Assembly: GCA_000437555.1 (NCBI GenBank)
Contig: FR901028.1
Location: 128,893 to 192,892 of the forward strand
Reading direction: 5' to 3'
Source: Acidaminococcus sp. CAG:917
Lineage (GTDB): Bacteria; Bacillota; Clostridia; Christensenellales; CAG-917
Length of the DNA stretch: 64,000 nt
In this document: in pieces, positions 26,274 through 55,016 of the stretch
Numbering within the stretch: position 1 is the stretch's first letter
Layout: each line of letters opens with the position of its first letter
Translations under genes and position numbers: made by a program
The notes under the pieces: generated by a model
What the model saw: the letters and a program-made list of their open reading frames with translations, nothing else
What the model was told of the DNA's origin: nothing
Database searches by the model: none

Positions 26274-26292
26274 AAATAAAAAGTTTTCAACA

Positions 26293-27666: not shown

Positions 27667-27673
27667 AGATTAT

Positions 27674-27702
27674 ATTATAACTAAACCAAAAGAATTTTTC
27701 AA
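27674..27702 (-). promoter_or_regulatory. dnaA promoter TTGAAA-17-TATAAT ending 7 nt before the ATG (no SD)
   Basis: The minus strand reads cgTTGAAAaattcttttggtttagtTATAATataatctATG. Confidence 0.55.
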
Positions 27703-27784
27703 CGAATATCGTATTATTTTTATTTTTTTACAATATATGCTTTTTTGGTAATTTTTCATTTTAAAAGATAAAAACTATATTTGT

Positions 27785-27813
27785 TTGTAATATTTTAACT
27801 TTTAATATATAAT
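27785..27813 (+). promoter_or_regulatory. recF promoter TTGTAA-17-TATAAT ending 6 nt before the ATG (no SD)
   Basis: -35 at 27785-27790 and -10 at 27808-27813, then ttgagt and ATG 27820. Confidence 0.5.
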
Positions 27814-27819
27814 TTGAGT

Positions 27820-28887: not shown

Positions 28888-28983
28888 AATTTTAAAACGA
28901 CCTGTTAAATATTTTTTTAACAAGTTAAATATTTTTTAAGCCTTTAAATTTTAAAATAATGCATTAAAAACGGAAAAAAACAA

Positions 28984-29010
28984 AAAAGCCGCATTCGGCT
29001 TTTTATTTTA
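28984..29010 (+). terminator. Terminator after recF
   Basis: AAAAGCCG-catt-CGGCTTTT stem, then TATTTT. Confidence 0.7.
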
Positions 29011-29082
29011 TCGAAATTGACAAAACAGAGAAACAGAAGAAAAATCGTCAATATTTATTAAATTGCATCTGTTATCTATCAA

Positions 29083-29520
29083 TTAAATTTTTCTGTTTAC
29101 ATTTTCCAAAAACGCTTTACAGCCTTTTAAAATATCGTCGTAGGCTTTGTCAAAATTTCCGGTATACCAAGGGTCTGCAACGTCACGGTTTTCGCCTGTG
29201 AATTCAAGCAGTCTGAATACTTTATTTTGAGGGTCTCCGTTTAATCTTATTACCGTGTTGGTAAAGTTTTCCGTATCCATAACGAGAAAATAATCCGACT
29301 TATCGTAGTCGGAGGACTTTAAAAGCGTAGCGGTATGTTTGGAAAAAGGTATTCCCTCTTTTGTCAGCTTGACTTTTGCGGGATAATACATATCGCTGCC
29401 CAATTCGTCCGTGTGAGTGGCTTTCGAATCAACTTCTATTTTCGGTTCTAAATATTTTAATATAAACTGCGCCATAGGTGAACGGCAGATATTGCCGTGA
29501 CAAACAAACGTGACTTTCAT
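29083..29520 (-). CDS. Low-molecular-weight protein-tyrosine phosphatase
   Basis: Active-site CX5R(S) loop VCHGNICRSPMA at the N-terminus and a DP motif (DVADPWY) near the C-terminus. RBS AGAGGAA. Confidence 0.85.
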   Translation of the reverse strand: MKVTFVCHGNICRSPMAQFILKYLEPKIEVDSKATHTDELGSDMYYPAKVKLTKEGIPFSKHTATLLKSSDYDKSDYFLVMDTENFTNTVIRLNGDPQNKVFRLLEFTGENRDVADPWYTGNFDKAYDDILKGCKAFLENVNRKI

Positions 29521-29828: not shown

Positions 29829-30914
29829 ATGAAGCAAGAAAAGAAACCGAAAAAAAGCCGAGCCGAACTTTTGAGAGAAATTTTCAATTTTAAAGGGATA
29901 AAGTTCTACAATTTCATTTTATTGACAGTAGCCGGTATAGTCAACGCGGTAGGCGTGACGATGTTTTTGGTGCCGGCAAATCTTTATGACGGCGGGCTTT
30001 CCGGTACTTCTTTTTTGCTCTCTAACGTTACGCCGCTTTCCCTATCGTTATGGCTCATCATTTTAAACGTTCCCTTTTTTTTGGTTGCGCTCAAAAAAGC
30101 AGGAATTAAATATATAATATATTCCCTTTGGGCAATCGGAATGTATTCGCTTTTCTCATACCTGTTTCAGAACGTTTTCGGAATCGATTTTTCCGACGGT
30201 TCGCCGATTGCCGGGCAGGACGTATTGCTTTGTTGCCTTTTCGGCGGTCTTATTAGCGGCATCGGAAGCGGTCTTACTATCCGTGCGGGCGGCGCTCTCG
30301 ACGGAGTAGAAGTCGCGGCGACTTTCTGTGCGAAAACACTCGGACTTTCCGTCGGTACGTTTGTAATGATTTACAACGTAATTGTTTATACTGTTGCAGG
30401 CGTTGTCTTCAAGGCATTTTCCGTGCCGCTCTATTCCGTCATTGCTTATGCGGTCGGCTTAAAAGCCGTCGATTTTATAGTAGACGGTTTCGACAAGGGC
30501 AAAGCCGTATTTGTCATTACCGATAAAAGTCAGACAGTCGCTTCTGCCTTGTCCGAGGAGTTCGGCAGAGGTCTTACCGTAATTAACGCCAAAGGTTTTT
30601 ATTCACAAACGGAAAAAATAGTGCTATACTGCGTAGTTAACAGGTTTGAGCTTTCAAAGCTTAAATCAATTGTCGAGCAAACAGACTCACAGGCTTTTAT
30701 AGCCGTAAGCGAAGTTACGGACACTCTCGGGTCCGATTTAAAATTCAGCCTTTTTAAACGCAAGAGCAATCTTGAAAAGATAATCAATCAATCCGAATTG
30801 AGCGATTCTCCTTGCGAAGTTTTACACCAAGTTCCGTCCGACGAACAAAGCGAGCCTTCAAATAATTCTTCTGAAGGGAAAACGGACAACGGCGGCGAAA
30901 ACAATAAAGTGTAA
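29829..30914 (+). CDS. YitT-family membrane protein (DUF161 repeats plus C-terminal DUF2179-like domain)
   Basis: 361 aa. Polytopic N-terminal half (GGLSGTSFLL, GGALDGVEV). Soluble C-terminal domain (FVITDK...GLTVINAKGFYSQTEKIVLYCVVNRFELSKLKSIV). S/E/N-rich tail. Confidence 0.8.
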   Translation: MKQEKKPKKSRAELLREIFNFKGIKFYNFILLTVAGIVNAVGVTMFLVPANLYDGGLSGTSFLLSNVTPLSLSLWLIILNVPFFLVALKKAGIKYIIYSLWAIGMYSLFSYLFQNVFGIDFSDGSPIAGQDVLLCCLFGGLISGIGSGLTIRAGGALDGVEVAATFCAKTLGLSVGTFVMIYNVIVYTVAGVVFKAFSVPLYSVIAYAVGLKAVDFIVDGFDKGKAVFVITDKSQTVASALSEEFGRGLTVINAKGFYSQTEKIVLYCVVNRFELSKLKSIVEQTDSQAFIAVSEVTDTLGSDLKFSLFKRKSNLEKIINQSELSDSPCEVLHQVPSDEQSEPSNNSSEGKTDNGGENNKV

Positions 30915-30978
30915 AAATGTCCTTAAATGTGTTGACAAATCTTTTTTTTGCAATTATTATATTAAAGCAATTAAAAAT

Positions 30979-31054
30979 GCTTGTTTAGCTCAGTCGGTAG
31001 AGCATGCGGCTGTTAACCGCAGTGTCGGGGGTTCAAGTCCCTCAACAAGCGCCA
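30979..31054 (+). tRNA. tRNA-Asn (anticodon GUU), 76 nt with encoded CCA
   Basis: Acceptor GCTTGTT/AACAAGC, D arm TAGCTCAGTCGGTAGAGCA, anticodon stem-loop TGCGG-CTGTTAA-CCGCA, T arm GGGGGTTCAAGTCCCTC. Confidence 0.92.
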
Positions 31055-31066
31055 ATAAATATATGG

Positions 31067-31095
31067 CACCTGTTAATAAACAGGTGTTTTTTATT
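31067..31095 (+). terminator. Terminator after tRNA-Asn
   Basis: CACCTG-ttaataaa-CAGGTG stem, then a T6 run. Confidence 0.75.
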
Positions 31096-31439
31096 TTCCT
31101 ATTTTAAAATTTGAATATTTGCTTTTGCTCAAGTAAGAGGGTAAGCGTCAATCATTGGTGTCTGCCTTATTGCGCGATAACGTAGAAAGTTAAAATTTAA
31201 GCAAGTTATATTTATATTAAGATTAAGAATGAAAAGATTGCGGCAATGCTTATATCTTTTGAGTGTTTATGACAAAAACATATAAAAAGTTTAAAATGCA
31301 GTGCTTTTTTTGTTTAAAATCTGCCAAATTCAGACAAAATCTTAAAAATCTTTTTAAAACTCTTGTCTATATTCGTTTTATATTATATTATAGTTATACT
31401 GAATATAGTTAATTTTTAAACAATTTCGGAGGCAAAATT

Positions 31440-34272: not shown

Positions 34273-35163
34273 TTAGTTGTTATCTTTTTTTAAAATTTCT
34301 ACCAGCTGATAAATTCTTTCCAGGTCGTCCTTAGAGAAATAATCAATGGAAAATCTTCCTTTTTCCGGTGTTCCGACAAGTTTGACTCTCGTGCCGAAAA
34401 CTCTCTTCATATCGCTGACAAGCTCTTTTAATTCGAGTGTGAGAGGCTGAGTTTTTCTCGGACCGGACGGAATATTCTTTCTTGTCTCATAAAGCCTGAC
34501 TCTGTCTTCGACGTCCCTTACCGTCATTTTGTATTGAACAATCTGTTTGGCAAGATTTATCAAAAATTCTTTATTGTCAATGGTGACGAGAGCTCTTGCG
34601 TGTCCCGAAGAAATCTTTCCGCTTTTGACCATTTCAAGCACTTCCTCGGGAAGAGTTAAAAGTCTTAAAAGGTTTGTTACGTAAGGACGGCTTTTGCCTA
34701 TGCGGTCGGCAACCGCTTCCTGCGTTAGTCCGTGATTTGTCATAAGCTCTTTAATGCCTTCCGCCGCTTCTATTGCGTTTAAATCCTCTCTTTGAATATT
34801 TTCGATGAGGGATATTGCCTTTATTTCCTCGACGGGCAAATCTTTTATAATCGCAGGCACGGTTTTGAGATTTGCTTTCATAGCCGCGCGGTAACGTCTT
34901 TCGCCGGCTACTATTTGATAGCGGCCGTTGGGAAGTTTGGTGACGAGGAGCGGTTGCAGAACTCCGTAAAGCTTCATAGAGTTTGACATTTCCTTTAATG
35001 TTTCTTCGTCAAAAGTTTTACGGGCCTGTTCGGGATTGCGGTCAAGCATCGTTATGTCAAGCTGTTGAATCGCCCCTTCTCCTTCGATATTAACTTCTCT
35101 GTTGTCGGTATAGTCCGCAAACAACGCGCCTATGCCTTTGCCTAATCCTCTCTGTTGTGCCAT
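34273..35163 (-). CDS. parB: Chromosome partitioning protein ParB/Spo0J
   Basis: ParB box GERRYRAA, an HTH region (LTQEAVADRIGKSRPYVTNLLRLL), and position immediately downstream of parA. Confidence 0.9.
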   Translation of the reverse strand: MAQQRGLGKGIGALFADYTDNREVNIEGEGAIQQLDITMLDRNPEQARKTFDEETLKEMSNSMKLYGVLQPLLVTKLPNGRYQIVAGERRYRAAMKANLKTVPAIIKDLPVEEIKAISLIENIQREDLNAIEAAEGIKELMTNHGLTQEAVADRIGKSRPYVTNLLRLLTLPEEVLEMVKSGKISSGHARALVTIDNKEFLINLAKQIVQYKMTVRDVEDRVRLYETRKNIPSGPRKTQPLTLELKELVSDMKRVFGTRVKLVGTPEKGRFSIDYFSKDDLERIYQLVEILKKDNN

Positions 35164-35167: not shown

Positions 35168-35947
35168 TTATCCTTTATTTTTATTTGTTCTGTTTAAAAA
35201 TTCGTTTTTCAAATCGGTATATGCTCTGCTGCCTAAACAATGTTTGTCATACAAAATTACGGGTTTTCCGAAGCTCGGAGCCTCGGCAAGACGAACGTTT
35301 CTCGGAATAATCGTTTTAAACACTTTCTCACAGAAATATTTTTTAATTTCTTCCGATACCTGCTGGCTGAGGTTGGCTCTTGAGTCGTACAGAGTGAGCA
35401 CAACGCCTTCCACTTCAAGTTTGGGATTGAGATATTTTTTTACAAGCATAACGGTATTCATCATCTGCGTTACGCCCTCTAAGGCATAATATTCGCATTG
35501 AATGGGAACTATTATTCCGTCGGACGCGGTAAGCGCATTTACGGTTAAAAGTCCGAGTGACGGCGGACAATCGAGGAAAATGAAATCGAAGTCGGCGCTC
35601 GCCTCGTTTATTTTTTCGGAAAGAATTTTTTCCCTTGCAATCACCACTTGCGCCATCTCAAGTTCCGCCCCGGCAAGGTCCATACAGCTCGGTATAAGCT
35701 TGAGCGTTGCAATGTCGGTATCCACTATCGCATCGGTTGCGCTCATCGAACCGCACAGCAAAGAATACGACGATTTTTCGCTTTTACGGTCGCTGAAACC
35801 TAATCCCGACGACGCGTTGCCTTGAGGGTCAAGGTCGACGACCAAAACTTTGTATCCGTCAAAAGCAAGACATGCCGCAAGATTTATGCACGTCGTCGTC
35901 TTTCCTACGCCGCCCTTTTGGTTGGAAAAAGCAATTATTTTAGCCAT
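35168..35947 (-). CDS. parA: Chromosome partitioning ATPase ParA/Soj
   Basis: Deviant Walker A NQKGGVGKTT at the N-terminus; 259 aa; followed by parB. Confidence 0.9.
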   Translation of the reverse strand: MAKIIAFSNQKGGVGKTTTCINLAACLAFDGYKVLVVDLDPQGNASSGLGFSDRKSEKSSYSLLCGSMSATDAIVDTDIATLKLIPSCMDLAGAELEMAQVVIAREKILSEKINEASADFDFIFLDCPPSLGLLTVNALTASDGIIVPIQCEYYALEGVTQMMNTVMLVKKYLNPKLEVEGVVLTLYDSRANLSQQVSEEIKKYFCEKVFKTIIPRNVRLAEAPSFGKPVILYDKHCLGSRAYTDLKNEFLNRTNKNKG

Positions 35948-36311: not shown

Positions 36312-37010
36312 CTATTCAAATTTCCAAAGCGGAGCTTTTTTGATTGCGTTAAACTGTCTCGGATAAATAGCGGGCGTAGCGGCTGTTTTTTCTATCACGA
36401 TTATCGCTCTTTCGTCACCGTTGGGAAGTTCAAATTTTTTTATGTCTTTCAAGCGGCAATTTATTTTGTTCAAGGCACTTTCCGAATTTTTCAATTCCTT
36501 ATCGTTTGATTTATAGCAGAGCATTATTCCGCCCGCCTTCAGCATGGGAGCAATAAGCTCGCAGAGTATCGGCAAAGTTGCGACCGCTCTCGCCGTGGCA
36601 AAGTCAAATTTTTCCGCTAAAAATCCCCTGCCCGCCTCTTCCGCTCTTGCCGTGACGGCAGTAAGGTTTTTAAGATTTAATTTTTGTGCCGCCTCGTTAA
36701 TAAAAGCGGTTTTTTTTGCAGTGCTGTCAACGGCGGTAACTTTTACCGTCGGCAGTACGATTGCGAGCGGCACGCATGGAAAGCCGCCTCCTGCGCCTAT
36801 GTCGACAAGCGTGCTGTTTTCCGATATAAATTCCGATGCGCACAGACTGTCAATCGTGTGTTTTATTTCAAAGTCAGACTCTTCGGTTATGGCGGTGAGA
36901 TTCATAACTTTGTTTTTTTCCAAAACAATGTGCATGAATCGGTCAAGTTTTTCGGCGATATTTGCGCTTAAATTTTTTTCCGTTAAAAATTTTTCGAGAA
37001 GTTTTCCCAT
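36312..37010 (-). CDS. rsmG: 16S rRNA (guanine527-N7)-methyltransferase RsmG (GidB)
   Basis: SAM motif VDIGAGGGFPCVPLAI, 232 aa, with the classical neighbourhood of parA/parB. Confidence 0.9.
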   Translation of the reverse strand: MGKLLEKFLTEKNLSANIAEKLDRFMHIVLEKNKVMNLTAITEESDFEIKHTIDSLCASEFISENSTLVDIGAGGGFPCVPLAIVLPTVKVTAVDSTAKKTAFINEAAQKLNLKNLTAVTARAEEAGRGFLAEKFDFATARAVATLPILCELIAPMLKAGGIMLCYKSNDKELKNSESALNKINCRLKDIKKFELPNGDERAIIVIEKTAATPAIYPRQFNAIKKAPLWKFE

Positions 37011-37207: not shown

Positions 37208-37897
37208 ATGAAAATTGCAATCATAACGGCAATGGAAAAGGAATGTGACCCAATCTATAAGCATTTAGGTTCGGTTATAGGAAGCGAAAGCGCAGGCGGA
37301 ATGACGATTTATCGTTTTGCCGTGGGCGATAACGACGTGTTTTTACTCTCTTGCGGCATAGGCGAAATTCAGGCGTCTGCCGCAACTCAGCTTGTTATCG
37401 ATAAATATGACGTTGAACTTATCGTCAACCTCGGTTTTGTAGGAAGTCTTGTTCCCGAACTTAAAGCCGGCGACGTTTGTTTCGTCGAGAGAGTCGTTCA
37501 TCATCAATTTGACGTTTCCGGCATTGACGGGGTTAAACGCGGACAGCTGGGAAAACATTCGGACATTTATTTTTATCTCGACAGACAAAAGGTGCTTGCG
37601 CTTCAGTCAAAGCTTCCCGATAAACTTCCGTTTGTCACTTTGGCTAGCGGCGACGAATTTATCTGCGACCGCAAAAAGAAGGATAAGCTTGTAAAAGACT
37701 TTGCCGCCGAAATTTGTGATATGGAACTTGCCGGTATAGCAATCACCGCAAAAAAGAACGGCGTTTCTGTTTTGTCAATCAAACTTGTCTCGGATAACGC
37801 CGACGAAAACGCCGCTATGTCATATAACGATTTTATTAAGGAAGGACTTCTGAAAATGGAAGGAGCAATAGGAATATTGCTGGGTATACTTCATTGA
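37208..37897 (+). CDS. mtnN: 5'-methylthioadenosine/S-adenosylhomocysteine nucleosidase
   Basis: MKIAIITAMEKE N-terminus, GIGEIQAS, and MELAGIA motifs of Pfs/MtnN. RBS GAGGTG. Confidence 0.85.
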   Translation: MKIAIITAMEKECDPIYKHLGSVIGSESAGGMTIYRFAVGDNDVFLLSCGIGEIQASAATQLVIDKYDVELIVNLGFVGSLVPELKAGDVCFVERVVHHQFDVSGIDGVKRGQLGKHSDIYFYLDRQKVLALQSKLPDKLPFVTLASGDEFICDRKKKDKLVKDFAAEICDMELAGIAITAKKNGVSVLSIKLVSDNADENAAMSYNDFIKEGLLKMEGAIGILLGILH

Positions 37898-38322
37898 AAC
37901 GAATAGCGTCTTTTGAAGTCAATCATGACGTGCTTGAGCGTGGTTTTTATCTTTCAAGGGTTGACCGTGATGTTTTTACCTATGACCTTCGTTTTAAAAA
38001 ACCTAACGGCGGTCAATATCTCGATATCAAAGCGATGCATTCGCTCGAGCATATGATGGCAACCGTGGCAAGGAACTCCGATTATGCCGATAAGGTCGTT
38101 TATTTTGGACCTATGGGCTGCCGAACGGGATTTTATCTTTTACTTTTTGGGACGGAATATGACGAAGCAAAAAATTTTGCTCTTGATTGTTTAAAAAAAT
38201 GCCTTGATTTTACTGTCGTTCCCGGAAGCGAACGAGTCGAATGCGGCAATTATCTTGAACACGACCTTGTCGGTGCAAAAAGAGAAATTACAGACTATCT
38301 TGCGTTGATGGAAAGCAAATAA
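37894..38322 (+). CDS. luxS: S-ribosylhomocysteine lyase LuxS
   Basis: HSLEHMMA (HxxEH metal site) and the GPMGCRTGFY Cys ligand. The TTG start overlaps the mtnN stop by 4 nt. Confidence 0.9.
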   Translation: MKRIASFEVNHDVLERGFYLSRVDRDVFTYDLRFKKPNGGQYLDIKAMHSLEHMMATVARNSDYADKVVYFGPMGCRTGFYLLLFGTEYDEAKNFALDCLKKCLDFTVVPGSERVECGNYLEHDLVGAKREITDYLALMESK

Positions 38323-38383
38323 CTGTTTTTTTTAAAAATTATATTCAAATTTATTTCGATAACCTTTTTAAGACAAAAATTTT

Positions 38384-38416
38384 ATCTCAAACGTTTTTCG
38401 TTTGAGATTTTATTTT
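38384..38416 (+). terminator. Terminator after luxS
   Basis: ATCTCAAACG-ttttt-CGTTTGAGAT 10-bp stem, then TTTTATTTT. Confidence 0.85.
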
Positions 38417-39365
38417 GGACAGTATTTTTCCTTAAGTTTTAAATTTTGATAGGTCTGTCATTATGCTACCGAATTTTAATTTTTCTCCGTGGCGCATTTT
38501 CTTTTTATAACTTTTTTATGATATAGCATTATATAGCTTTTTTATTTCGCCTTATTCCGTTTAGTTCTTTAATTTCAAAATTAACGGCTTACTCTTTATT
38601 TTTTGTTCCTTTTTCATTTTTTTTGCAAAATATCGCCAAATAGGTTCAATAGTTAACCTTTTTCTGTAAAAAATCGTCCTCTACGTTTGACGTTGACGAT
38701 TTTTTTGAATAACAACTCGAGACAATGCCAAATCGCCGAATTTTGGCTTACACGCCGTCATATGGCATGGGTTTTTTGAAAAAAATTAAAAATCGGATAA
38801 AATTCCTTTAAAACGGATTTTTTGCTTAAAATATGTTTCTCTTTTCATAATTTTTAAATTTTTCTTTATACCGAGTTTTTTTGCGCTCTTTAAAAGCTTT
38901 CCGTTCAATATTTTTTGCAACAAACTTGTTATCGGCACGCTGAATACAAATCCGAGCGTTTAACTTTTTCGTCTTGATATTTTTGCATTGTTTGTGTTTG
39001 TCTTGTTTCTTTCTCTTTGCGCTATTTCACAATACGAGTCGAACCTCAAATTCAGGTTTACCGTTTTATTAGTTACGTTTAAACGCTTGATTTGTTCAGG
39101 CGACGTCGTTTCATTTGTCGCTATACAATTTTTATTTTATCCTTTGAATTATTGTTAAAACGGTTTATATATTAACTATTATTAAGCAAAAAACATAATT
39201 TTATCAAAAGTTTTTAAAAAATATAGCGCAATTCGCTCAATCTTATTATTTGTCGGCGATTTTTTTTACTTTTTATTAATTTAGTCTGACTTTTTATGCC
39301 GATTTTTTTAGTCGCGTCGATTCGTTTTTACCGGGTAATCAGACGGCTGTCGGATATGACCTTTA

Positions 39366-39374
39366 TGCGGATAA
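39366..39374. promoter_or_regulatory. DnaA box, 1 mismatch (TGCGGATAA = reverse complement TTATCCGCA)
   Basis: Direct 9-mer match to consensus TTATCCACA with 1 mismatch. Confidence 0.5.
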
Positions 39375-39619
39375 CATACAACCTATTCGTTAATTTTACT
39401 TGTTTTATAAGGCGTTTTTAATTCATAGATTCTGTGCTGTTGTATGTATTTCTAAGGGTAAGAGCGCAGGTTATTTGTTTTCAAGTTGCGATAGATTTTG
39501 TTTTTTTGCCTTTTAAGATGCTTAAGCAGTTTTTTAGTATTGGTTTTTTAATTCTTTACAATGGAAATTTGCAGGAAAACTCCGATATGTCTTTTTGCGT
39601 CAATTTTTTCTGTTTTTTG

Positions 39620-39661
39620 TGTGGATAAATATGCATATTTGGTGGAAAAGCCTGTGGAAAA
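39620..39661. promoter_or_regulatory. Three co-oriented DnaA boxes
   Basis: TGTGGATAA 39620-39628 (perfect), GGTGGAAAA 39641-39649 (2 mismatches), TGTGGAAAA 39653-39661 (1 mismatch). Confidence 0.7.
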
Positions 39662-39777
39662 GCATATTTTTGTCTGTTTTTGCTCATTATGAAACATAGT
39701 CGTTTTGCCGTCAATTTCTCTTCGTTTTTACTTTTGTTCGGCATGATTGTGCGTCCGATTTCTTTTAATTTTTCTTA

Positions 39778-39793
39778 TGTTTCACGTGAAACA
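39778..39793. promoter_or_regulatory. parS site, perfect 16-bp palindrome TGTTTCACGTGAAACA
   Basis: Matches the Spo0J/ParB parS consensus TGTTNCACGTGAAACA at 16 of 16 positions. Confidence 0.85.
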
Positions 39794-39818
39794 TTTTATT
39801 TTTGATTTTTACGGTGAT

Positions 39819-39834
39819 TGTTCCACGTGAAACG
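39819..39834. promoter_or_regulatory. parS site TGTTCCACGTGAAACG (1 mismatch)
   Basis: 15 of 16 match to the parS consensus. Centre lies 41 bp from the first site. Followed by hairpin AAAACGCC-gtatttag-GGCGTTTT. Confidence 0.8.
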
Positions 39835-40049
39835 GAAAAACGCCGTATTTAGGGCGTTTTGGGCGTATTTTTGCTTAAAAAACGGGCATTTTGCTTAATA
39901 AAATGAGTCCGAAAGCCTTTTTGAATAAGACGGATACAATAAAGAAATTATGCTGAAGAGACGAGAAAAGTAAGCGTTAATACCGCCGAAACGGATATGG
40001 AGAATTTAATTTGTCGCTGACTCGGATTCGCCGTAGAAATTTGCGAAAC

Positions 40050-40100
40050 TTATCCCCTTTTTTTTGATATATCCACAACAAAGTGGTGCGATGTGGATAA
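40050..40100. promoter_or_regulatory. DnaA-box trio including a convergent pair
   Basis: TTATCCCCT 40050-40058 (2 mismatches), ATATCCACA 40069-40077 (1 mismatch), TGTGGATAA 40092-40100 (perfect, opposite orientation). Confidence 0.7.
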
Positions 40101-40541
40101 ACGTATTTAAACTGATATTTTTATCGTATAATTCCGTTCAGATGACCCAAAATAAATGTAATCCGCTCTTCGATATCTCGTTTTTTGCTCGGATAGGTAA
40201 AGAAACATATAAAAGGTATTAAAAGTTTCCTTATTATTAAATCTGCACGAGTTCCGACGGAGTTTAGTTTAAATACATAAAAAGCTTTTGCGGATATTGT
40301 TGCAAAAGGATAAACTGTCATTTTTGCGGTATTGTTTTTAATCCATACGTCGGCTGCCATAAAGACGGAGAGTTATTTTTTGAAAAGCCGTATTTTTTTT
40401 AGGATTGGAAATGAATTCAATAATTCATCCGGGAACGGTTAGCAAAATTTTGCCGATTGAATTTGCCTGTTGTCGGAATTAAATACGGCATTATAATACA
40501 TAATTAATCTGTCGGAAATCATATCCGAAAAAGGAGTTTTG

Positions 40542-40691
40542 ATGAAATGCTTTGAATGCGGTAAAGAAATCGCGGAAGACGAAACTTTTTATTGCCCGAG
40601 ATGCGGAGCGACGGTTTGCAATAATTGCAACGATATAAATGAAAACGTCTGTCCTTATTGCAACAGGTCGAATCTATATTTATATAATTAA
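40542..40691 (+). CDS. 49-aa Cys-rich double zinc-ribbon microprotein (hypothetical)
   Basis: Not in the ORF track (under 60 aa). Sequence MKCFECGKEIAEDETFYCPRCGATVCNNCNDINENVCPYCNRSNLYLYN, with four CxxC pairs. RBS AAGGAG 5 nt upstream. Possible promoter TTGTCG-16-TATAAT at 40470-40497. Confidence 0.45.
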   Translation: MKCFECGKEIAEDETFYCPRCGATVCNNCNDINENVCPYCNRSNLYLYN

Positions 40692-40925
40692 AATGCGGCA
40701 ATGCATAAAGCTGCGTTAAACTGCAATTTATTTTTGCTCGGTCGCTAAAGCCATATCGATGAGTTAAGAATCTTTTAAGCTTCTGAATTGAAATTAAAAA
40801 GCGGCTTAGATAAGGTTAGAATATTTGTTTTGAAAAGAGTAATTGAAAATATAGCAACGGAATAGGGTTGACTGTTAAAAAGGATTTAAAATATTGATAT
40901 GAGAGAAAACCCGATAAACGCAAAT

Positions 40926-40941
40926 TGTTTCACGTGAAACC
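40926..40941. promoter_or_regulatory. parS site TGTTTCACGTGAAACC (1 mismatch)
   Basis: 15 of 16 match to the parS consensus. Confidence 0.8.
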
Positions 40942-41681
40942 GTTTGCGTTTATACTTTAAAAAACATATAAAACAAAGAATTTGAATAATAGTCATTGTC
41001 CAAGTGCCGAATAAAAAATTTTTCATAAAAAACAATAAGGAAATCAAGAATAACGCTATCCAATAAATTCGAGGGAAAAGCGGTATGTTATTTACCGAAA
41101 CATACCGACTCATATGACGATTTTATAAATAGGCGACTATCGTCATATTAATTATGCTTTAACAGCGAATAAGGTGTAAAAAAGACAAAAAGCAAAAGGG
41201 AACATTTGCAAAGACTGCCGAAATAAAGCTTTGAAAGCTTTAAAACAGACATTGAAAATTTAAAAAAAAGAGACTTTTATAAATTTAAAAATCAGCCAAA
41301 CAAAATAAAAAATAAAGAGCTGCAATATACGGAGCAAATGGGTAAATTGAAAGTTCGGGAATTATACCGCGAATAGATTAAGCAAATATGAATAAAGACG
41401 GAAAGAGAAAAAATATGCTGCAAGAAGCGAAAACCGAAATCGAACGCGTCGGTCAAAAAAAAGGGAATTGAGGTCAAAAGTCGCTGAAAAGTAAAAAAAA
41501 TATACAGTTAGAATAAGTTAACTTGTAAATTAAAAGGCTGAAAAATATTTTATAAAAGCTGAAATTGAAGACAGAGCAGCCCTTTAAAAAGTCAAATACG
41601 GCGTAGAACGCGATATTTAACGCGGTAAACGGCAGTTTGATTATTTATACGGCGGAAAATTTAAGCCTTAATAAAGGCGTT

Positions 41682-43052
41682 TTACGGCGTGACTGAAATT
41701 TGCACCGGGTCGGACGAAGTATAGCCGTCTTTAGTTGCCACGATTTGAATAACGTCGTTTTCGGTTATAGGTAAAGAAGAAAAATCGTAGAAACGGCTAT
41801 CCGACACAACGGCAACCAGAGCGTTGTTTAAATAAATTTCAAAATTTGCCGAAGAAGCATATTCCCAATATAAAACGCCGTCTGAAATATATACGCTTTC
41901 GGGAGCATCGAGTTTAGGTTCGTATACGAAGAAAGTGTATATTTCCGTTATATAAGCGTTATCGTATAAAATAACGGAAAGGTAATTATAACCCGTGTAA
42001 AGAAACGACGAAACGTTTACAAAAATGCAGTAGTATTCCTTATTGTCTATCAGAACCGTCGTTTTTCCCGCAGTTTCGCATTTGTCGAGATTTATGTCGG
42101 GCACGGAAACGATATCGGAGGTAAAGAAGAATGTATCGTTAAGATACAATTCAAAATATTCAACGTTGCTCCGGGCGTAGAAAATGCAGAAACATTCGTC
42201 ACCGATTGCCGAAGCGGAAAGAAACTCGTTTGAAAATATTTCCTCCGGATTGTCGTCGGCGGGCGGTTCGGCTACGGGAATTTCAACGCTAATCGAGCCC
42301 GTGCGGCTAAAACATTCGTTTATCGCCGCGACCTCAATCATGTATGAATTGCCTTCTTTCAGCAAATGCGAAATATCGTAGCTTGATGCAAATACCGTTT
42401 CGATATACGTTCCGTCGACATAAATTTCGTAGCCGAGCGCGTTTTCGCATATATCCCAAGACAAGATACCGCCGCCGAAAGTCAAAACGGGAGCCAAAGG
42501 CGCAAGGACATACTTTGCGTAAACCGAAGTATCGGCGCTTGGATAATAACGGAAAGACTTTCGGTCGGACAAAAGCGAGTCGCCTATATACCAACCGAGA
42601 AAAACGGAATCGTCGTTTTCCGATGCGGTAAGGTCGATACAGTCGTAAACTTGGTGAGCTCCCGTATTTTGATGCGCCGGATTGTTTGAAGAAACGGTAA
42701 CCGTATAGGGTTCAAAGAGATAGGCGAATACGGTTATAAAGGAATCCGATTCCGTAATCTCGAGCGAATTGCAAGAAAAAGTATAACCGTCGGCAGAAAA
42801 AGACAATACGTCTTTAACGTTTAGCGAATCTAAATAAAACGTACCCGTGTCGTCTGTTTGGTAACGCAAAGAGCCGTTTACGAATACGTAAACGTTTGCC
42901 AAAGGCAAATCGCCGAAAGTGATTTTGCCCGATACGAATAATTCGTCTGCGGTCTTTTCTGAAGGGATATTATCGGAATCGTTGCACGCACAAAGTAAAA
43001 TCGGAAGAAAGCAAAGAATAAGCAAAATAAAAATTAAGACCAATAATTTCAT
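41682..43052 (-). CDS. Surface lipoprotein with CarboxypepD_reg-like, Listeria-Bacteroides-repeat-like and Fn3-like modules
   Basis: Signal peptide with Cys (LPILLCAC). VSGKITFGDLPLANVYVFVNG...GTFYL (Cna-B/CarboxypepD_reg-like). FLGWYIGDSLL (Flg_new-like). Two L-x-AP...L-x-W...Y-E-I-Y modules. Confidence 0.7.
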   Translation of the reverse strand: MKLLVLIFILLILCFLPILLCACNDSDNIPSEKTADELFVSGKITFGDLPLANVYVFVNGSLRYQTDDTGTFYLDSLNVKDVLSFSADGYTFSCNSLEITESDSFITVFAYLFEPYTVTVSSNNPAHQNTGAHQVYDCIDLTASENDDSVFLGWYIGDSLLSDRKSFRYYPSADTSVYAKYVLAPLAPVLTFGGGILSWDICENALGYEIYVDGTYIETVFASSYDISHLLKEGNSYMIEVAAINECFSRTGSISVEIPVAEPPADDNPEEIFSNEFLSASAIGDECFCIFYARSNVEYFELYLNDTFFFTSDIVSVPDINLDKCETAGKTTVLIDNKEYYCIFVNVSSFLYTGYNYLSVILYDNAYITEIYTFFVYEPKLDAPESVYISDGVLYWEYASSANFEIYLNNALVAVVSDSRFYDFSSLPITENDVIQIVATKDGYTSSDPVQISVTP

Positions 43053-43181
43053 AAGTAACCTATAAGGGCGTCAAAAGGGCGTAAGACGCCGGTAACGAAT
43101 AAAATATATTAAGTATAAAAACGCAATCCAAAGCCGAATACGCCCCTTTCGGGGCGTATAAATTATCAAAGCGAAATCAGT

Positions 43182-43970
43182 TTAAGCGCTTGGCCATTCG
43201 GCAACGGACGAGCGGTAACCTTCCGCAAAAGCGGTAACGGTGAAGCTATCGACGGGAGTGTCCAAAAGTATATAGTTTTGAGTCAGGTTATAAGTGGAAA
43301 CAGATTCGCCCGAGACGACTTCTAAGATATAGCCTTCCGCATGATTGACTTTTGACCAGGTTACGAGATAGCTTCCGATATATGCGACGGAAAGATTTTT
43401 GGCAGGAGCTAACAGAGGCGTATATAAAATGTTTAAATAAGACGGCATTGAATATTCTCCGTTAGCTTCAGAAACAACCGAAACGCAGTAAGCGCCGCCC
43501 GAAAGAATATAATTTGAAAGGTTTATTTGCGTGTCGGTAACGTCAGCCACTTTGATTTTGGAGACATATACGTGATGCACCGTCGCAGAAGAATCGGCGT
43601 TGAAATGCAGAAAGTCTCCGTCGAAATACAAAGCCGACGGTGAATCAAGCGATATGGTATACTCTATCTCCTTTATAAGGGTTCCGTTTGAGTAAACCTC
43701 GATGGTATTTTCGCCGGATTCAAGGTAGTCGCCGATATCGATTAATACGTCGTCCGCAGTTCCGTAAAATACGTAAGAATTCGTATTGGTTATTCGGACT
43801 TCGAAATCGCCGTCGCAAGCAACTTTAAGGCAGTATCTGCCGTCGGAAACTGTCACGGCGAACGATTCTGCAGCGGCGCAGGCTATGGAAAAACAGGGCA
43901 CAAAAGCCAATGCGATAATGCTCAATGCCGCAAAAATAATCGCGGATTTAAAGATAATTGCTCGTTTCAT
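43182..43970 (-). CDS. Secreted protein with repeated Fn3-like modules (paralogous modules shared with the downstream lipoprotein)
   Basis: Start set at ATG 43970 (MKRAIIFKSAIIFAALSIIALAF... signal peptide, AAA-E cleavage-like site); the track start 44006 is TTG. Modules LLAPAKNLSVAYIGSYLVTWSKVNHAEGYILEV. Confidence 0.65.
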   Translation of the reverse strand: MKRAIIFKSAIIFAALSIIALAFVPCFSIACAAAESFAVTVSDGRYCLKVACDGDFEVRITNTNSYVFYGTADDVLIDIGDYLESGENTIEVYSNGTLIKEIEYTISLDSPSALYFDGDFLHFNADSSATVHHVYVSKIKVADVTDTQINLSNYILSGGAYCVSVVSEANGEYSMPSYLNILYTPLLAPAKNLSVAYIGSYLVTWSKVNHAEGYILEVVSGESVSTYNLTQNYILLDTPVDSFTVTAFAEGYRSSVAEWPSA

Positions 43971-43976
43971 TTCAAA

Positions 43977-44006
43977 ATTATAACAAAATTCGACAAAAAA
44001 TAGCAA
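43977..44006 (-). promoter_or_regulatory. Promoter TTGCTA-18-TATAAT ending 6 nt before ATG 43970 (no SD)
   Basis: The minus strand reads TTGCTAttttttgtcgaattttgtTATAATtttgaaATG. Confidence 0.45.
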
Positions 44007-44039
44007 TAGTTATAATGAATAAAAATTTTTTTTTAAAAG

Positions 44040-44048
44040 TTTTCCACA
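44040..44048. promoter_or_regulatory. DnaA box TTTTCCACA (1 mismatch)
   Basis: Direct 9-mer match. Lies 8 bp upstream of the AT tract below. Confidence 0.45.
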
Positions 44049-44056
44049 TTTAGTTG

Positions 44057-44142
44057 TTAATATATAAAATATATATTATAATAATAACAATTTTTTTAAT
44101 ATTATATATACAATATAAATATATAAAAATCAATATAAATAT
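44057..44142. other. 86-bp tract with only three C and no G (about 96% A+T); DUE-like
   Basis: Counted directly: the only non-A/T bases are C at 44088, 44111 and 44131. Contains the direct repeat CAATATAAATAT at 44111 and 44131. Confidence 0.6.
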
Positions 44143-44397
44143 CGGTAAAATACCGTATGAAATCGAAGCAAAAATATCTCGGTTTAAAAGCAGGTTTTTT
44201 GTTCGGGTTCAAAATCGGGCGGAAAATTCAAACCGCTCATTACCGAAACATTCGGGTTTTGACAGTTATGGAAAACCCGACGCTTATATATCGAAAAGAC
44301 GGCGTTTTCCGATTATTTTTTACCGTCTTATAAGCAAGATATCCAGCTAAAAAAGATGCTTGTTTTAATAAATAAAATCACTAAAACGGAGGCTTAA

Positions 44398-46329
44398 ATG
44401 AGCTCAGTTCAACACAGTTATAACGAATCGGATATACAGGTTTTAGAGGGACTCGAACCTGTCAGAAAAAGACCGGGTATGTATATCGGTTCAACCGATT
44501 CAAGAGGCTTGCACCACCTTGTTACCGAAGTCGTCGATAACTCTATCGACGAGGCTTTGGCGGGTTTCTGCACCGATATCGACGTGGAGATAACCAACGA
44601 AGGCGCAATAAAAGTCAAAGACAACGGCAGAGGCATTCCCACGGGTATTATTCCCGGCGAAGGTAAATCGGCGGTTGAAGTAGTTTTGACCAAACTTCAC
44701 GCAGGCGGTAAATTCGGCAGCGGCGGTTATAAAGTTTCGGGCGGTCTGCACGGCGTCGGCGTATCCTGCGTCAATGCTCTGAGCGAATGGCTCGAAGTCG
44801 AGGTAAGGCAAAACGGGAAGGTATACAAACAGATTTTCAACAGAGGAGTTCCTCAGCGTGACCTTGCCGTCGTCGGCGAATCGGACGAAACGGGAACGAC
44901 AATAACTTTTTATCCCGACGACACGATTTTTGAAACGCTCGAGTTTAACTATGATACGTTAAAGGCGAGGCTCAGAGAGCTTGCCTACTTAAACAAAGGT
45001 CTGAAAATCAGAATTACCGATTCAAGAGTAGACCCCGTAAAGAGCGAGCTTTTCTGTTATGAGGGCGGTATAGTTTCTTTTGTAGAGAGTTTAAACAAGA
45101 GCAAGGAAACGGTTTTCCCCGAAGTCATCTATTTCGATAAAAATTATACGGAAACGGTAAAGGGCGTTACCGACACTTACGAGGCGGAAGTCGCTTTTCA
45201 ATATAACGACAGTTACAGCGAAACTATACTCAGTTTTGCAAACAACATAAACACGGAAGAGGGCGGAACGCACCTCGACGGCTTCAAATTCGCCATATCG
45301 AAATGTATAAACGACTACGGCAAAAAGCAGGGGCTCATTAAAGATTCCGAAAAGCTCAGCGGCGAGGACACAAGAGAAGGCATTACCGCCGTCATATCCG
45401 TAAAGCTGGGCAATCCGCAGTTTGAGGGACAGACAAAAACCAAACTCGGCAACAGCGTTGTAAGAAGCATAGTTTCAAAGGCGATTGTGGACGGTTTCGG
45501 AACATATCTCGAGGAGCACCCCAAAGAGGCGAAAGAGCTGATAATGAAAACGCTTACCGCACAGAGGGCGAGAGAGGCGGCAAGAAACGCCAGAGAACTT
45601 GCAAGAAGAAAGAGCCCGCTGGAGACGACCACTCTTCCCGGAAAACTTGCCGACTGCACGGACAAAGAAGCGAAATACTGCGAGATATACCTCGTTGAGG
45701 GCGACAGCGCGGGCGGCACGGCAAAACAGGGCAGAGACAGACGCTTTCAGGCTATATTGCCGCTAAGAGGCAAAATTTTAAACGTCGAAAAGGCAAGGCT
45801 TCACAGAGTGCTCGAAAACGAAGAAATCAAAGCGATGATAACGGCTTTCGGCTGCGGAATACATCAGGACTACGACGAATCCAAGCTCCGTTACGACAGA
45901 ATTATATGTATGACGGATGCCGACGTCGACGGCTCACACATCAGAATACTTATGCTCACCTTCTTCTTCAGATATATGCGTCCGCTCATCGAAAACGGAC
46001 ACGTCTATATCGCTCAGCCGCCGCTGTATAAGGTCAAGACGGGAAAGAAGGAAGAATATTTCTATGACGACGAATCGTTAAACGCTTATCTCGACTCTCT
46101 CGACCGAAAAGGCTATGAAATTCAAAGATATAAAGGTCTGGGCGAGATGAACGCAGAGCAGCTGTGGGAGACAACTATGGACCCGGCAAGAAGGACTCTG
46201 CTTAAGGTCACAATGGAAGACGCAATCGAAGCGGATTCGATAATCAGCACTCTTATGGGCGAAGACGCGGAACTGAGACGTCAATTCATTGAAGAGAACG
46301 CAAAACTCGTGGAAGAGCTTGACGTATAA
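44398..46329 (+). CDS. gyrB: DNA gyrase subunit B
   Basis: [26 protein letters not shown], the GHKL ATPase (DNGRGIP), the Toprim [12 protein letters not shown], and [10 protein letters not shown]. Confidence 0.97.
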
Positions 46330-46340
46330 GGAGAAGCAAT

Positions 46341-48926
46341 ATGGCAAAGCAAGAAAAAGAAAGAAACTACATAGAAGACTTATCCAAATCGACGGTCAAG
46401 CCTGTCGAGGTTAACAGCGAACTTAAAAAATCGTTTATCGCTTATGCTATGGCGGTCAACGTATCGAGAGCCATTCCCGACGTCAGGGACGGTCTTAAAC
46501 CCGTTCACCGCCGTATACTCTATTCGATGAACGAGTTAAACCTCGCTTCCGACAGACCGTACCGTAAGTGTGCGCTTATCGTAGGCGACGTTTTGGGTAA
46601 ATATCACCCCCACGGCGACAGCTCCGTTTACGACGCCCTCGTCAGACTTGCGCAGGACTTCTCTATCGGCTGTCCGCTCATCGACGGACACGGAAACTTC
46701 GGCTCGGTGGACGGAGACCCGCCTGCCGCATACCGTTATACGGAAGCGAGAATGAGCAAGATTGCCGCCGAAATGATAAGGGATATAGACAAAAAGACGG
46801 TTGACTTTTATCCCAACTTCGACGATACGAGAATGCAGCCGACCGTATTGCCTGCCCGTTATCCCAATCTTTTGGTAAACGGTTCGGACGGAATTGCCGT
46901 CGGTATGGCGACGAGCATACCCCCTCACAATCTCGGAGAGGTTATCGACGCTACAATCGCACTCATCAAAAATCCCGAAATGACGGTGGACGAACTCATC
47001 GAATATATTCCTGCTCCCGACTTTCCGACGGGCGCAATCGTGCTCGGCAGGGGCGGAATAAGGCAGGCATACCGCACGGGCAAAGGTTCGGCGATAATCA
47101 GGGCTAAGACGGACATCGAAGAACTTCCCAACGGAAAGAGCAGAATAGTTATAACGGAAATACCCTATCAGGTCAACAAGGCGAAACTCATCGAAACGAT
47201 TGCCGACCAGGTCAGGGACAAGAGAATAGAAGGCATTGCCGACGTTGCCGAGGAAACGGACAGGACAGGTATGCGAATTGTCGTCGAAACGAAAAAGGAC
47301 GCCAACGCTCAGGTGGTGCTCAACACGCTCTTTAAACAGACCCAGCTTCAGACCAACTTTTCAATTATCCTTTTGGCGTTGGTGGACGGTGTGCCCAAAA
47401 TACTCAACCTTAAAGAAATACTCACCGCCTATATCGCTCACCAAGAGGACGTCATTATCCGCAGGACAAAATTCGACCTCGAAAAGGCAGAGGAGAGAGC
47501 GCACATCTTAGAAGGTCTTGCCATTGCTCTTGCCAATATAGACGAAGTGGTGGACACACTCAAAAAGTCGAAAGAAAGAGCGGACGCCATGCAAAAGCTC
47601 ATGGAAAGGTTTTTGCTTTCCGAAAAGCAGGCAAATGCCGTGCTCGAAATGAAGCTCCAGCGTCTTACTTCTCTCGAAGTGGAAAAGATAAACGAAGAGC
47701 TTGAAGAAAAGCATAAAGAGATTGCCGAATACAAACGCATACTTTCCTCCATTGACGCCGTAAAGGAAATAATCATAGAGGAAATGAGCGAGATAAAGGA
47801 CAAATACGCTCAGCCGAGAAAATCGGAAATCAGCTACGATTATTCCGACATAGATATAGCCGACCTCATCGAAAAAGAGGACGTAGTTATCACAATGACT
47901 CACGAAGGCTACGTCAAGCGACTTCCCGTTGCGGAATACAGAAGCCAGCACAGGGGCGGCACGGGCATAACGGCACATAAGGCAAAAGAAGAAGACTTTA
48001 TCGAGGAAATGTTCACCTGCTCGTCGCACGACGATTTGCTCTTCTTCACCAATCTCGGAAAGGTGTTCGGGCTCAAGGCGTATGAAATTCCCGAAGCGCA
48101 GAGAACGGCAAGGGGCAGAGCGATGGTCAATCTTTTGCAGCTTACCCCGGGCGAGAAGGTCACGAACGTGCTTCCCTTCTATGAAACGCAAAAGGGCTAC
48201 CTTGTGCTTGCAACCAAAAAAGGACTAATCAAAAAGACGGACGTAAGCGAATATATGTCGATAAAGAAAAACGGCAAGATTGCAATTACGTTCAACGAAA
48301 ACGACGAACTCATCGCAGCATACTTCAGCAGCGGCGAGGACGAAATAATTGTCGGCGCGACGAACGGAAACTGTATTCGATTCAGCGAAAAGGACGTCCG
48401 CCCGACAAGCAGAACGGCAATGGGCGTAAAGAGCATAGAGCTTCCCGAGGGCGCGGAAGTCGTCGATATGGCTGTGCTCAAAGAGGGCTCCGAGATTTTG
48501 ACGATAACTGAAAAGGGCTTCGGCAAACGCAGCGAATATCCCGACTATCCCAAACAGGGCAGAGCGGGCAAAGGCGTAAAGGCAGGCGTGTTCAACTCCA
48601 AGACGGGCAGACTCGTAGCTCTTAAAGTTCTGCCGCCCGAAATGGACGTCATGATAATCACCAACGGCGGAATAATCATTCGTATGGTGGCGGACGAAAT
48701 TTCCAAATTCGGCAGAGATACGCAGGGCGTAAAGGTCATGAGACTGAAAGCGGACGAGCTTATCTCGAGCGTAACGCTCACGCCTCACGAGGACGAGGAA
48801 GAGGAACAGACGGACGGCGAGGACTTTATCTCAAAGCCGGAGGAAGTGGACATATCACAGGATTCTATCCCCACCGAAACTTCTTCCACTCCGCAGACGG
48901 ACAAGCCGCAGGACGACGAAGAGTAA
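46341..48926 (+). CDS. gyrA: DNA gyrase subunit A
   Basis: RAIPDVRDGLKPVHRRILY, the QRDR-type GDVLGKYHPHGDSSVYDALVR, the active-site AAYRYTEARM, C-terminal beta-pinwheel repeats, and an acidic tail. Confidence 0.97.
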   Translation: MAKQEKERNYIEDLSKSTVKPVEVNSELKKSFIAYAMAVNVSRAIPDVRDGLKPVHRRILYSMNELNLASDRPYRKCALIVGDVLGKYHPHGDSSVYDALVRLAQDFSIGCPLIDGHGNFGSVDGDPPAAYRYTEARMSKIAAEMIRDIDKKTVDFYPNFDDTRMQPTVLPARYPNLLVNGSDGIAVGMATSIPPHNLGEVIDATIALIKNPEMTVDELIEYIPAPDFPTGAIVLGRGGIRQAYRTGKGSAIIRAKTDIEELPNGKSRIVITEIPYQVNKAKLIETIADQVRDKRIEGIADVAEETDRTGMRIVVETKKDANAQVVLNTLFKQTQLQTNFSIILLALVDGVPKILNLKEILTAYIAHQEDVIIRRTKFDLEKAEERAHILEGLAIALANIDEVVDTLKKSKERADAMQKLMERFLLSEKQANAVLEMKLQRLTSLEVEKINEELEEKHKEIAEYKRILSSIDAVKEIIIEEMSEIKDKYAQPRKSEISYDYSDIDIADLIEKEDVVITMTHEGYVKRLPVAEYRSQHRGGTGITAHKAKEEDFIEEMFTCSSHDDLLFFTNLGKVFGLKAYEIPEAQRTARGRAMVNLLQLTPGEKVTNVLPFYETQKGYLVLATKKGLIKKTDVSEYMSIKKNGKIAITFNENDELIAAYFSSGEDEIIVGATNGNCIRFSEKDVRPTSRTAMGVKSIELPEGAEVVDMAVLKEGSEILTITEKGFGKRSEYPDYPKQGRAGKGVKAGVFNSKTGRLVALKVLPPEMDVMIITNGGIIIRMVADEISKFGRDTQGVKVMRLKADELISSVTLTPHEDEEEEQTDGEDFISKPEEVDISQDSIPTETSSTPQTDKPQDDEE

Positions 48927-53013: not shown

Positions 53014-53083
53014 AGGCAAGCGGCATTATAAACGTCGCTGTTTTAGATAATAATGATAATAATCTCTTTTGGAGGAATATAAA

Positions 53084-53218
53084 ATGAAACAAACCTATCA
53101 ACCTAAAAAGCGTACCGCCAAAAAAGTTCACGGCTTCAGAGAAAGAATGAGCACCAAAAACGGCCAAAACGTATTGTCGAGAAGAAGGGCTAAGGGCAGA
53201 GCGAAATTGTCTGCATAA
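53084..53218 (+). CDS. rpmH: 50S ribosomal protein L34
   Basis: Not in the track (44 aa). Sequence [53 protein letters not shown]. Confidence 0.92.
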
Positions 53219-53221
53219 GCG

Positions 53222-53554: not shown

Positions 53555-53793
53555 AATATCTTTGTTTTTTGCTTTTAAAATTTTATAAAGCGTTTATTTC
53601 ACCTATCACGGGCAACAACTGCAAATTTACGCCGACATGCTCAATGTATATGTATGAAGCAATTTCAAAACACGGAGCTTTTAAGGGAATTGCCTTAGGC
53701 ACGGCAAGACTTTTAAGATGCAATCCGTTCAGTCGAGGCGGCTACGACCCCGTTCCCGAGAATTATAAAGGAAAGTGCAAATGGCTCATTTAA
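53551..53793 (+). CDS. yidD: Membrane protein insertion efficiency factor YidD
   Basis: YKAFISPITGNNCKFTPTCSMYMYEAISKHG...LRCNPFSRGGYDPVP. Confidence 0.88.
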   Translation: MKYLCFLLLKFYKAFISPITGNNCKFTPTCSMYMYEAISKHGAFKGIALGTARLLRCNPFSRGGYDPVPENYKGKCKWLI

Positions 53794-55007: not shown

Positions 55008-55016
55008 GGAGATAAA

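Follow-up and report, generated by a model that had tools for sequence, protein, structure and literature searches.

A conserved module of DnaA boxes and parS sites in a gene-poor tract of the Acidaminococcus sp. CAG:917 origin region, and a predicted unwinding element beside dnaN

The DNA analysed here is a stretch of 64,000 nucleotides from contig FR901028.1 of Acidaminococcus sp. CAG:917 (the window, to whose positions coordinates refer unless another source is named). Between the stop codon of luxS and that of a gene for a 456-amino-acid (aa) protein, the window contains an AT-rich, gene-poor tract (38323-41681, no strand assigned; 31.6% GC versus 42% for the window). An earlier reading made from the letters alone (the sequence-only reading) had singled out this tract as free of credible genes and had proposed it as the functional or ancestral core of the replication origin, oriC. 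Over the full 3359 bp, no stop-to-stop frame reached 100 codons, and the next-largest frame-free gap in the 64 kb measured 516 bp at this threshold or 659 bp at a threshold of 120 codons. The longest open reading frame (ORF) of the tract encodes 79 aa (40121-40360, minus strand). This gene-finder call was rejected, because two of nine strains have a truncated frame, its amino acid changes are many and the sister species lacks it. The following features were found in the tract:

39620-39661, minus strand: three tandem DnaA boxes (TGTGGATAA at 39620, GGTGGAAAA at 39641, TGTGGAAAA at 39653)
39687-39697, no strand assigned: 11-mer TTATGAAACAT, resembling a parS half-site, invariant in a four-species alignment
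39778-39793 and 39819-39834, no strand assigned: parS pair, TGTTTCACGTGAAACA and TGTTCCACGTGAAACG, 41 nt start to start
39835-39907, plus strand: conserved segment after the parS pair
40040-40049, no strand assigned: invariant 10-mer TTTGCGAAAC, about 20 nt ahead of the convergent box pair
40069-40077 (plus strand) and 40092-40100: convergent DnaA-box pair, ATATCCACA and TGTGGATAA (the latter reading TTATCCACA on the minus strand), 23 nt start to start
40542-40691, plus strand: zinc-ribbon gene of 49 aa, with a promoter-like match TTGTCG-16-TATAAT at 40470-40497
40926-40941, no strand assigned: third parS site, TGTTTCACGTGAAACC, within a longer palindrome (40914-40953)

Motif counts were compared with chance expectation. 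Perfect DnaA boxes (TTATCCACA) occurred twice in 64 kb, both times in the tract (39620 and 40092), against 0.34 expected window-wide. With up to one mismatch allowed, the tract contained five boxes where 0.67 were expected, a count reached in none of 500 Markov simulations; four of these boxes lie inside 521 bp, a density for which the expectation was 0.11 and which was likewise reached in 0/500 simulations. The sequence-only reading had counted seven DnaA-box-like 9-mers; five of these stand at the one-mismatch threshold, and the figure of seven is obtained only by adding the two-mismatch sites at 39641 and 40050. The parS sites, 16-bp inverted repeats of consensus TGTTNCACGTGAAACA, numbered three in the window against 0.04 expected and were all in the tract, with no mismatch at 39778, two at 39819 and one at 40926. 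The two perfect boxes and three parS sites reported earlier are thus the only ones in the window.

Relatives were found through homologues of RsmG, DnaN and LuxS and the contigs carrying them. The set comprised a sister species (RsmG 78% and DnaN 91% identical to the window species), species C (DnaN 76%, LuxS 71%), species C' (LuxS 74%), species D (LuxS 66%), species E (L098; DnaN 65%), species F (L099; LuxS 60%) and L097 (DnaN 62%). The contig search with RsmG yielded one near relative (78%); every other match was at 45% or below and was of use for parS context only. A human-gut metagenome scaffold was identical to the window, and the species was seen in many samples at about 98.8% identity. 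A recent atlas of gut Clostridia ranks CAG-917 as a family within the Christensenellales.

The core of the tract was identical in order in four species (window species, sister, C and C'), running from the tandem boxes through TTATGAAACAT, the parS pair, a segment of about 70 nt and TTTGCGAAAC to the convergent box pair. The start-to-start distances of 21 and 12 nt between the tandem boxes recurred in the sister (13564/13585/13597), and the cluster was kept in C and C'. In the sister, C and C', the members of the parS pair were 41-42 nt apart and those of the convergent box pair 21-23 nt apart. The segment after the parS pair was kept in four to five species; it includes a weak sigma-70-like match, TTAAAA-18-TAAAAT (39875-39904), from a promoter scan that overall did not exceed chance. 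The third parS site lies about 1.1 kb past the pair in the window species and the sister, and 86-87 nt past it in C and C'. DnaA boxes and parS sites that are far above chance expectation and keep the same order and spacing across species argue that the tract is functional origin-region DNA and not noise.

Variation among nine conspecific strains pointed in the same direction. The tandem box cluster and the parS sites were invariant, and the DNA between the members of the parS pair was polymorphic. Both boxes of the convergent pair were unchanged in 8/9 strains, the left one reading ATTTCCACA in L007 (one substitution), and their spacer carried 1-nt indels and substitutions. Invariance of the core motifs within a species whose spacers vary is the pattern left when selection maintains protein-binding sites. 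Cognate parB and parA genes are found 4-5 kb from these motifs. The sites share with chromosomal parS centromeres the 16-bp inverted repeat, the cognate ParB and ParA and an origin-proximal position, dnaA, dnaN, gyrB and gyrA being in the same window. The boxes, in turn, have the properties of an oriC-proximal DnaA-box cluster, in that they are clustered, intergenic, outside the predicted unwinding site and 13.5 kb from it.

The 49-aa zinc-ribbon ORF, which the sequence-only reading had judged intact, was found at the equivalent tract position in the sister, C and C', with 73%, 55% and 49% amino acid identity, respectively, by tblastn. Its protein was identical in the nine strains, with diversity near 0. 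Pfam zinc-finger matches were weak, and the gene call in species C had a weak Zn_Ribbon_1 match. By its conservation, this ORF is evidently a real gene.

A gene-poor tract was present 3' of luxS in five further species, with the following lengths:

Sister species: 3963 bp
Species C: 4126 bp
Species C': 3859 bp
Species D: 3053 bp
Species E: more than 2.5 kb

Tract length was about constant in eight conspecific contigs. Absence or hypervariability in close relatives had been named beforehand as evidence against an origin at this site; the tract proved to be in place, and its sequence was mostly unalignable outside the core. Between the window species and the sister, coding flanks were 80-92% identical and only about one-fifth of the tract could be aligned; its background outside the conserved parts could not be aligned between species. 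Nucleotide diversity of the tract within the species was 0.025, compared with 0.004-0.025 at four-fold sites of neighbouring genes, and was tenfold that of first and second codon positions.

This neutral-looking background raises the possibility that the length and emptiness of the tract are functionless, with accessory genes arriving and decaying around ordinary parS sites and DnaA boxes. We regard this account as somewhat unlikely, although part of the evidence suits it well. The background changes at about the rate of four-fold sites. In the same interval, species F carries an intact GrpB gene, a 132-aa gene and a DUF8412 gene (L099 10564-12449), with parS sites between the genes, and the species E tract contains a frameshifted DUF8412 pseudogene (L098 19155-19755). 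The flanking genes vary too, with the 456- and 274-aa proteins here and HlyIII in species D, E and F. However, the decayed genes that the sequence-only reading had envisaged were not recovered. The only match in six-frame Pfam scans of the tracts of the window species and the sister was the zinc ribbon, with no remnant of dnaA, dnaN, a transposase or any other gene; blastn of the tract against plasmids and phages gave no match; and tblastn with the proteins of the species F interval gave nothing significant. Moreover, 3.4-4.1 kb was kept in four species whose neutral sites can no longer be aligned, which would be hard to square with bacterial deletion bias. The likeliest identity of the tract's long arms is spacer DNA or accessory DNA that has decayed, and decay of this kind is compatible with a functional core module.

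One further stretch of the tract was conserved, in the sister and in no other species compared:

38626-38858, no strand assigned: island, 69% identical to the sister

The island includes a hairpin followed by a T-run (38754-38776), and the sister shares the core and the stop position of its 28-codon frame (MPNRRILAYTPSYG...). A small RNA, a micro-ORF and a terminator are all possible identities for the island.

Candidate unwinding sites were sought with a published rule (PMC8287927), which calls for a DnaA box with no more than 2 mismatches, a spacer of 0-16 nt and at least three DnaA-trios with the central A on the bound strand. Scoring was by our own implementation of this rule, and the orientation of the scan was checked against the trio sequence of Clostridioides difficile oriC2 (PMC7561715). 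The sole match in 64 kb was in the dnaA-dnaN spacer (26087-26292):

26100-26161, minus strand: predicted unwinding element

Read along the minus strand, this element begins with tandem boxes, TTATCCACT (26161-26153) and TTATAAACA (26153-26145), followed by GGG (26144-26142). Seven triplets come next, ATA ATA ATA ATA GTA ATA ATT (26141-26121), then an AT-rich run (26120-26101), the ribosome-binding site of dnaN and its start codon at 26086. The spacer thus contains, in order, the tandem boxes, GC cluster, at least three trios and AT-rich DNA of the basal unwinding system (BUS). Three boxes with at most one mismatch fall within its 206 bp, against 0.08 expected, and only two 40-mers of the window are less stable than the one at the AT-rich run by the trios. 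In six species the element occurred about 75 nt before the dnaN start, with one match per relative, and it kept to dnaN even in L097 and L098, whose dnaN and dnaA genes converge and form no operon. Alignment of the six elements revealed invariant TTxTCCAC, xAACA and GC-cluster positions; the triplet sequence changed and its period was kept.

The tract gave a different picture. Application of the box and trio rule to the tracts of the window species, sister, C and C' produced no match, and the window's 15 least stable 40-mers all lie outside the tract. AT-rich unwinding DNA adjoining the tract boxes was not found, the tract's one low-stability 100-mer (39127-39226) being about 400 bp from the nearest box. 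A trio-like match downstream of dnaA in species D was weak and overlapped the ribosome-binding site of the next gene, and it was not relied on. The distance from the tract to the dnaN element is 13.5 kb here and 8-12 kb in the relatives, and stays within 8-14 kb through the rearrangements described below. Judged by sequence architecture, the site of chromosome unwinding most likely lies in the dnaA-dnaN spacer, at about 26.1 kb.

The tract is probably an origin-proximal DnaA-box cluster fused to a parS centromere, with the chromosome opening elsewhere, near dnaN; we hold this reading with moderate confidence. DnaA would open the duplex at the dnaN-proximal element. ParB would load at the three parS sites, spread over the tract and build a partition and SMC-loading complex. 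DnaA would also sit on the high-affinity boxes that flank the parS pair, and would thereby form a DnaA reservoir physically next to the ParB-ParA switch. The role of these boxes may match that of the DnaA-box clusters near oriC in Bacillus subtilis, which restrain initiation with Spo0J/Soj.

Several observations weigh against this interpretation. The trios of the predicted element read 3'-TAT-5', where the consensus is 3'-GAT-5'. Species D has no dnaN beside dnaA, and only the doubtful trio match is found there. The DNA upstream of gyrB (44007-44397) is a third region that combines a DnaA box with AT-rich sequence. The purine-skew minimum (39824) and the AT-skew minimum (40473) both fall in the tract. 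Finally, the strongest boxes of the window belong to the tract, and the 147-bp recF-dnaA intergenic region is without a DnaA box at up to one mismatch; this would allow the tract to be an essential half of the origin and not a brake.

The skew minima bear on the account closest to the sequence-only reading, in which the tract itself is the functional origin, unwinding takes place inside it, and the element upstream of dnaN serves only as a promoter or in autoregulation. The presence in the tract of the sole perfect DnaA boxes and sole parS sites of the window accords with this account, as does its canonical position between rsmG-parA-parB and gyrB-gyrA, for which synteny agrees with the earlier claim. 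Skew was the remaining support. The hand counts given for it were exact (43 T and 21 A at 39001-39100; 23 T and 57 A at 41221-41320), and purine skew switches sign exactly at the parS pair in the window species and the sister. However, left-arm purine skew was neutral in C' and of opposite sign in C, and the T>A to A>T flip was weak in C' and absent from C; the right arm was purine-rich on the plus strand in all four species. Per-gene GC and AT skews at four-fold sites were tried as a locator and dropped, being dominated by codon usage and inconsistent between arms. Since these skews track codon usage and show no consistent replication term, the V shape of the window mostly reflects gene orientation. 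With the flip not conserved in C or C' and no clean four-fold signal, the switch is probably not a reliable origin signature. It seems to be lineage-specific, and divergent transcription or DNA ancestry could equally cause it.

The cumulative GC-skew minimum of the window is at 26598, inside dnaA, and a skew minimum at the dnaA-dnaN spacer was what the sequence-only reading had itself named as counting against an origin in the tract. The lack of a trio module in any of the tracts scanned and the position of the least stable DNA, which adjoins the dnaN element, argue likewise, and in species C dnaA and dnaN would face forks from the tract head-on. We therefore give little credence to unwinding inside the tract.

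The purine polarity of the arms could instead reflect divergent non-coding transcription units. In this proposal, the purine-rich strands (minus in the left arm, plus in the right) would be the sense strands of long transcripts leaving from promoters in a core bound by DnaA and ParB, the right one including the zinc-ribbon gene. The sign change at the parS pair in two species, the purine-rich right arm in four and the conserved promoter-like segment after the pair are consistent with such transcripts, and in Vescimonas a homologous parS pair lies in the promoter region of parA. However, promoter and terminator matches in the tract were not above shuffled expectation, the arm sequences are not conserved, and the left-arm polarity is absent from C and C'. 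The large non-coding RNA sought with Rfam was not found, as no family reached its gathering threshold in the tract; the best E-values, 0.05-4 in a permissive run that amounted to noise, were far under the family cut-offs. A repeat search of the tract returned parS-related repeats and low-complexity matches only. This explanation seems to us very improbable.

The box-free recF-dnaA gap suggests a further arrangement, a split bipartite origin in which the tract boxes are the displaced upstream half (oriC1, or incA-incB) and are needed through looping or ParB/SMC bridging over about 13 kb. Put in evolutionary terms, the origin would have been pulled apart, with the unwinding module travelling with dnaN and the DnaA platform fused to parS 8-14 kb off, the two being joined for initiation, for example by ParB/SMC bridging; in a variant, the tract would fire as a second origin. 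Both forms strike us as unlikely. Canonical Firmicute origins, unlike this one, have a large box cluster upstream of dnaA, melting in vitro in C. difficile requires both origin halves (PMC7561715), and the tract and dnaN element have remained 8-14 kb apart despite several rearrangements. However, the halves of the bipartite origins cited flank dnaA and are not more than 10 kb apart, and the sequence gives no sign of interaction between the tract and the dnaN element. In addition, the species F interval has parS sites but no DnaA box at up to one mismatch, so that the boxes are not universal in the family. If such a split origin with bridging did exist, the start of replication would be physically dependent on the segregation machinery.

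The genes around the tract, with flanking genes assigned by Pfam, are as follows:

24980-26086, minus strand: dnaN
26293-27666, minus strand: dnaA
27814-28887, plus strand: recF
34273-35163, minus strand: parB, with ParB_N and HTH_ParB domains
35168-35947, minus strand: parA
36312-37010, minus strand: rsmG
37208-38322, plus strand: a nucleosidase gene and luxS
41682-44006, minus strand: two genes without a Pfam match (456 aa and 274 aa)
44398-48926, plus strand: gyrB and gyrA
53081-58845, plus strand: rpmH, rnpA, yidD, yidC, jag, mnmE and mnmG, right of gyrA and argS

The order of dnaA, recF, the par and gyr genes and the rpmH-mnmG block around the tract indicates an origin region heavily rearranged relative to the canonical Firmicute map. 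The relocation of rpmH through mnmG, as had been claimed, was borne out (plus strand, 53.1-58.8 kb), and the block lies on the opposite side and in the opposite orientation to that map. The LMWPc-recF-dnaA-dnaN segment (window 24980-29520; L090 and L091 6395-11101) is inverted in the window species and sister relative to species C. This inversion leaves dnaN and recF co-oriented with forks from the dnaN element, as an origin-spanning inversion would. In L097, L098 and L099, dnaN and dnaA are convergent, and in species D dnaA has no dnaN next to it. Gene order near the origin is unusually scrambled in this family.

Other observations concern particular neighbours. The 327-bp spacer at 24653-24979, between a GNAT gene and dnaN, which are convergent, is extremely AT-rich; three of the window's 15 least stable 40-mers fall in it, along with repeated units resembling CTAATATTTA, and it adjoins one breakpoint of the inversion relative to species C. 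Around the tRNA at 30979-31051 (30701-31100), length varies among the nine conspecific strains, with 799 gap columns, and three or four tRNA-like copies stand in tandem at this place in the sister. Across the 456-aa and 274-aa genes, the plus strand has A>T and G>C, and the coding strands of both are therefore T- and C-rich, unlike those of other genes in the window. The interval from the tract to gyrB differs by species, with a 134-aa gene in C, a 289-aa gene in C' and HlyIII in D, E and F. Upstream of gyrB, a one-mismatch DnaA box (44040-44048) stands by AT-rich DNA (44053-44152), and the region holds the least stable 100-mer of the window. The corresponding DNA has a perfect box and another 155 bp upstream in the sister, one perfect box in C' and two perfect boxes in a repeat array in D. 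This region may be a further DnaA-box cluster or serve in DnaA control of gyrB.

Beyond the family, Stomatobaculum longum (Lachnospiraceae; L073 12081-14749) has 2.7 kb without a 100-codon frame downstream of rsmG and parAB. This stretch contains 9 of the 12 parS-like sites of its locus, which together span 10820-14292, and it appears to be an independent case of a long non-coding parS array.

Under the preferred reading, in which the tract is a DnaA-box cluster and centromere and opening occurs near dnaN, the unwinding element keeps to dnaN and, in some relatives, has lost its link to dnaA. Origin predictors that use DnaA-box density and AT or purine skew would probably misplace oriC in this genome. 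The tract offers a natural arrangement for asking if initiator titration and ParB-ParA control share one nucleoprotein hub. For now its value is mainly comparative, because the organism is uncultured.

Oppositely oriented DnaA boxes, as in the convergent pair of the tract, are also used in DARS. The Escherichia coli datA and DARS loci, DnaA-box clusters that lie apart from oriC and modulate the availability of DnaA (summarised in PMC3245932), resemble the tract. The likeness is one of resemblance only; these loci are defined in E. coli, and the tract gave no evidence for IHF sites or nucleotide-exchange activity. Another setting for comparison is that of Pseudomonas oriCII upstream of gidA (PMC13438810), a second DnaA-box region by gid and par genes and apart from the active origin. 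However, oriCII is a short promoter region controlling gidAB-parAB, whereas the tract is far larger, bears parS and does not lie upstream of rsmG or parAB.

Compared with the Firmicute BUS and oriC2 (B. subtilis incC, C. difficile oriC2; PMC8287927, PMC7561715), the dnaA-dnaN spacer has the full architecture in the right orientation, and the tract has boxes only, without trios or an adjacent unwinding element. The parS sites resemble those of origin-proximal ParABS systems (PMC3245932) in matching TGTTNCACGTGAAACA, in lying no more than about 14 kb from the predicted origin and in being near parA and parB. They differ from the usual sites in that all three are non-coding and gathered in one tract. 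The parA promoter of Vescimonas (Oscillospiraceae) contains a parS pair of about 40-nt spacing, whereas the pair here lies 3.8 kb off and points away from parA. In the lineage of the window, the pair has left parA and is found with DnaA boxes.

The nearest parallel for those boxes is in B. subtilis, where oriC-proximal DnaA-box clusters restrain initiation, in synergy with spo0J and Spo0J/Soj (Okumura et al. 2012, PMC3245932). As in those clusters, high-affinity boxes occupy intergenic DNA near oriC and outside the unwinding site. Here, however, the predicted boxes are interleaved with parS in a fixed geometry within a gene-free tract of 3-4 kb, and no gene nearby is an obvious target of regulation. 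Clusters of DnaA boxes outside oriC and parS sites near the origin are both familiar; in this lineage they are interleaved, in a conserved geometry, in an unusually long non-coding tract.

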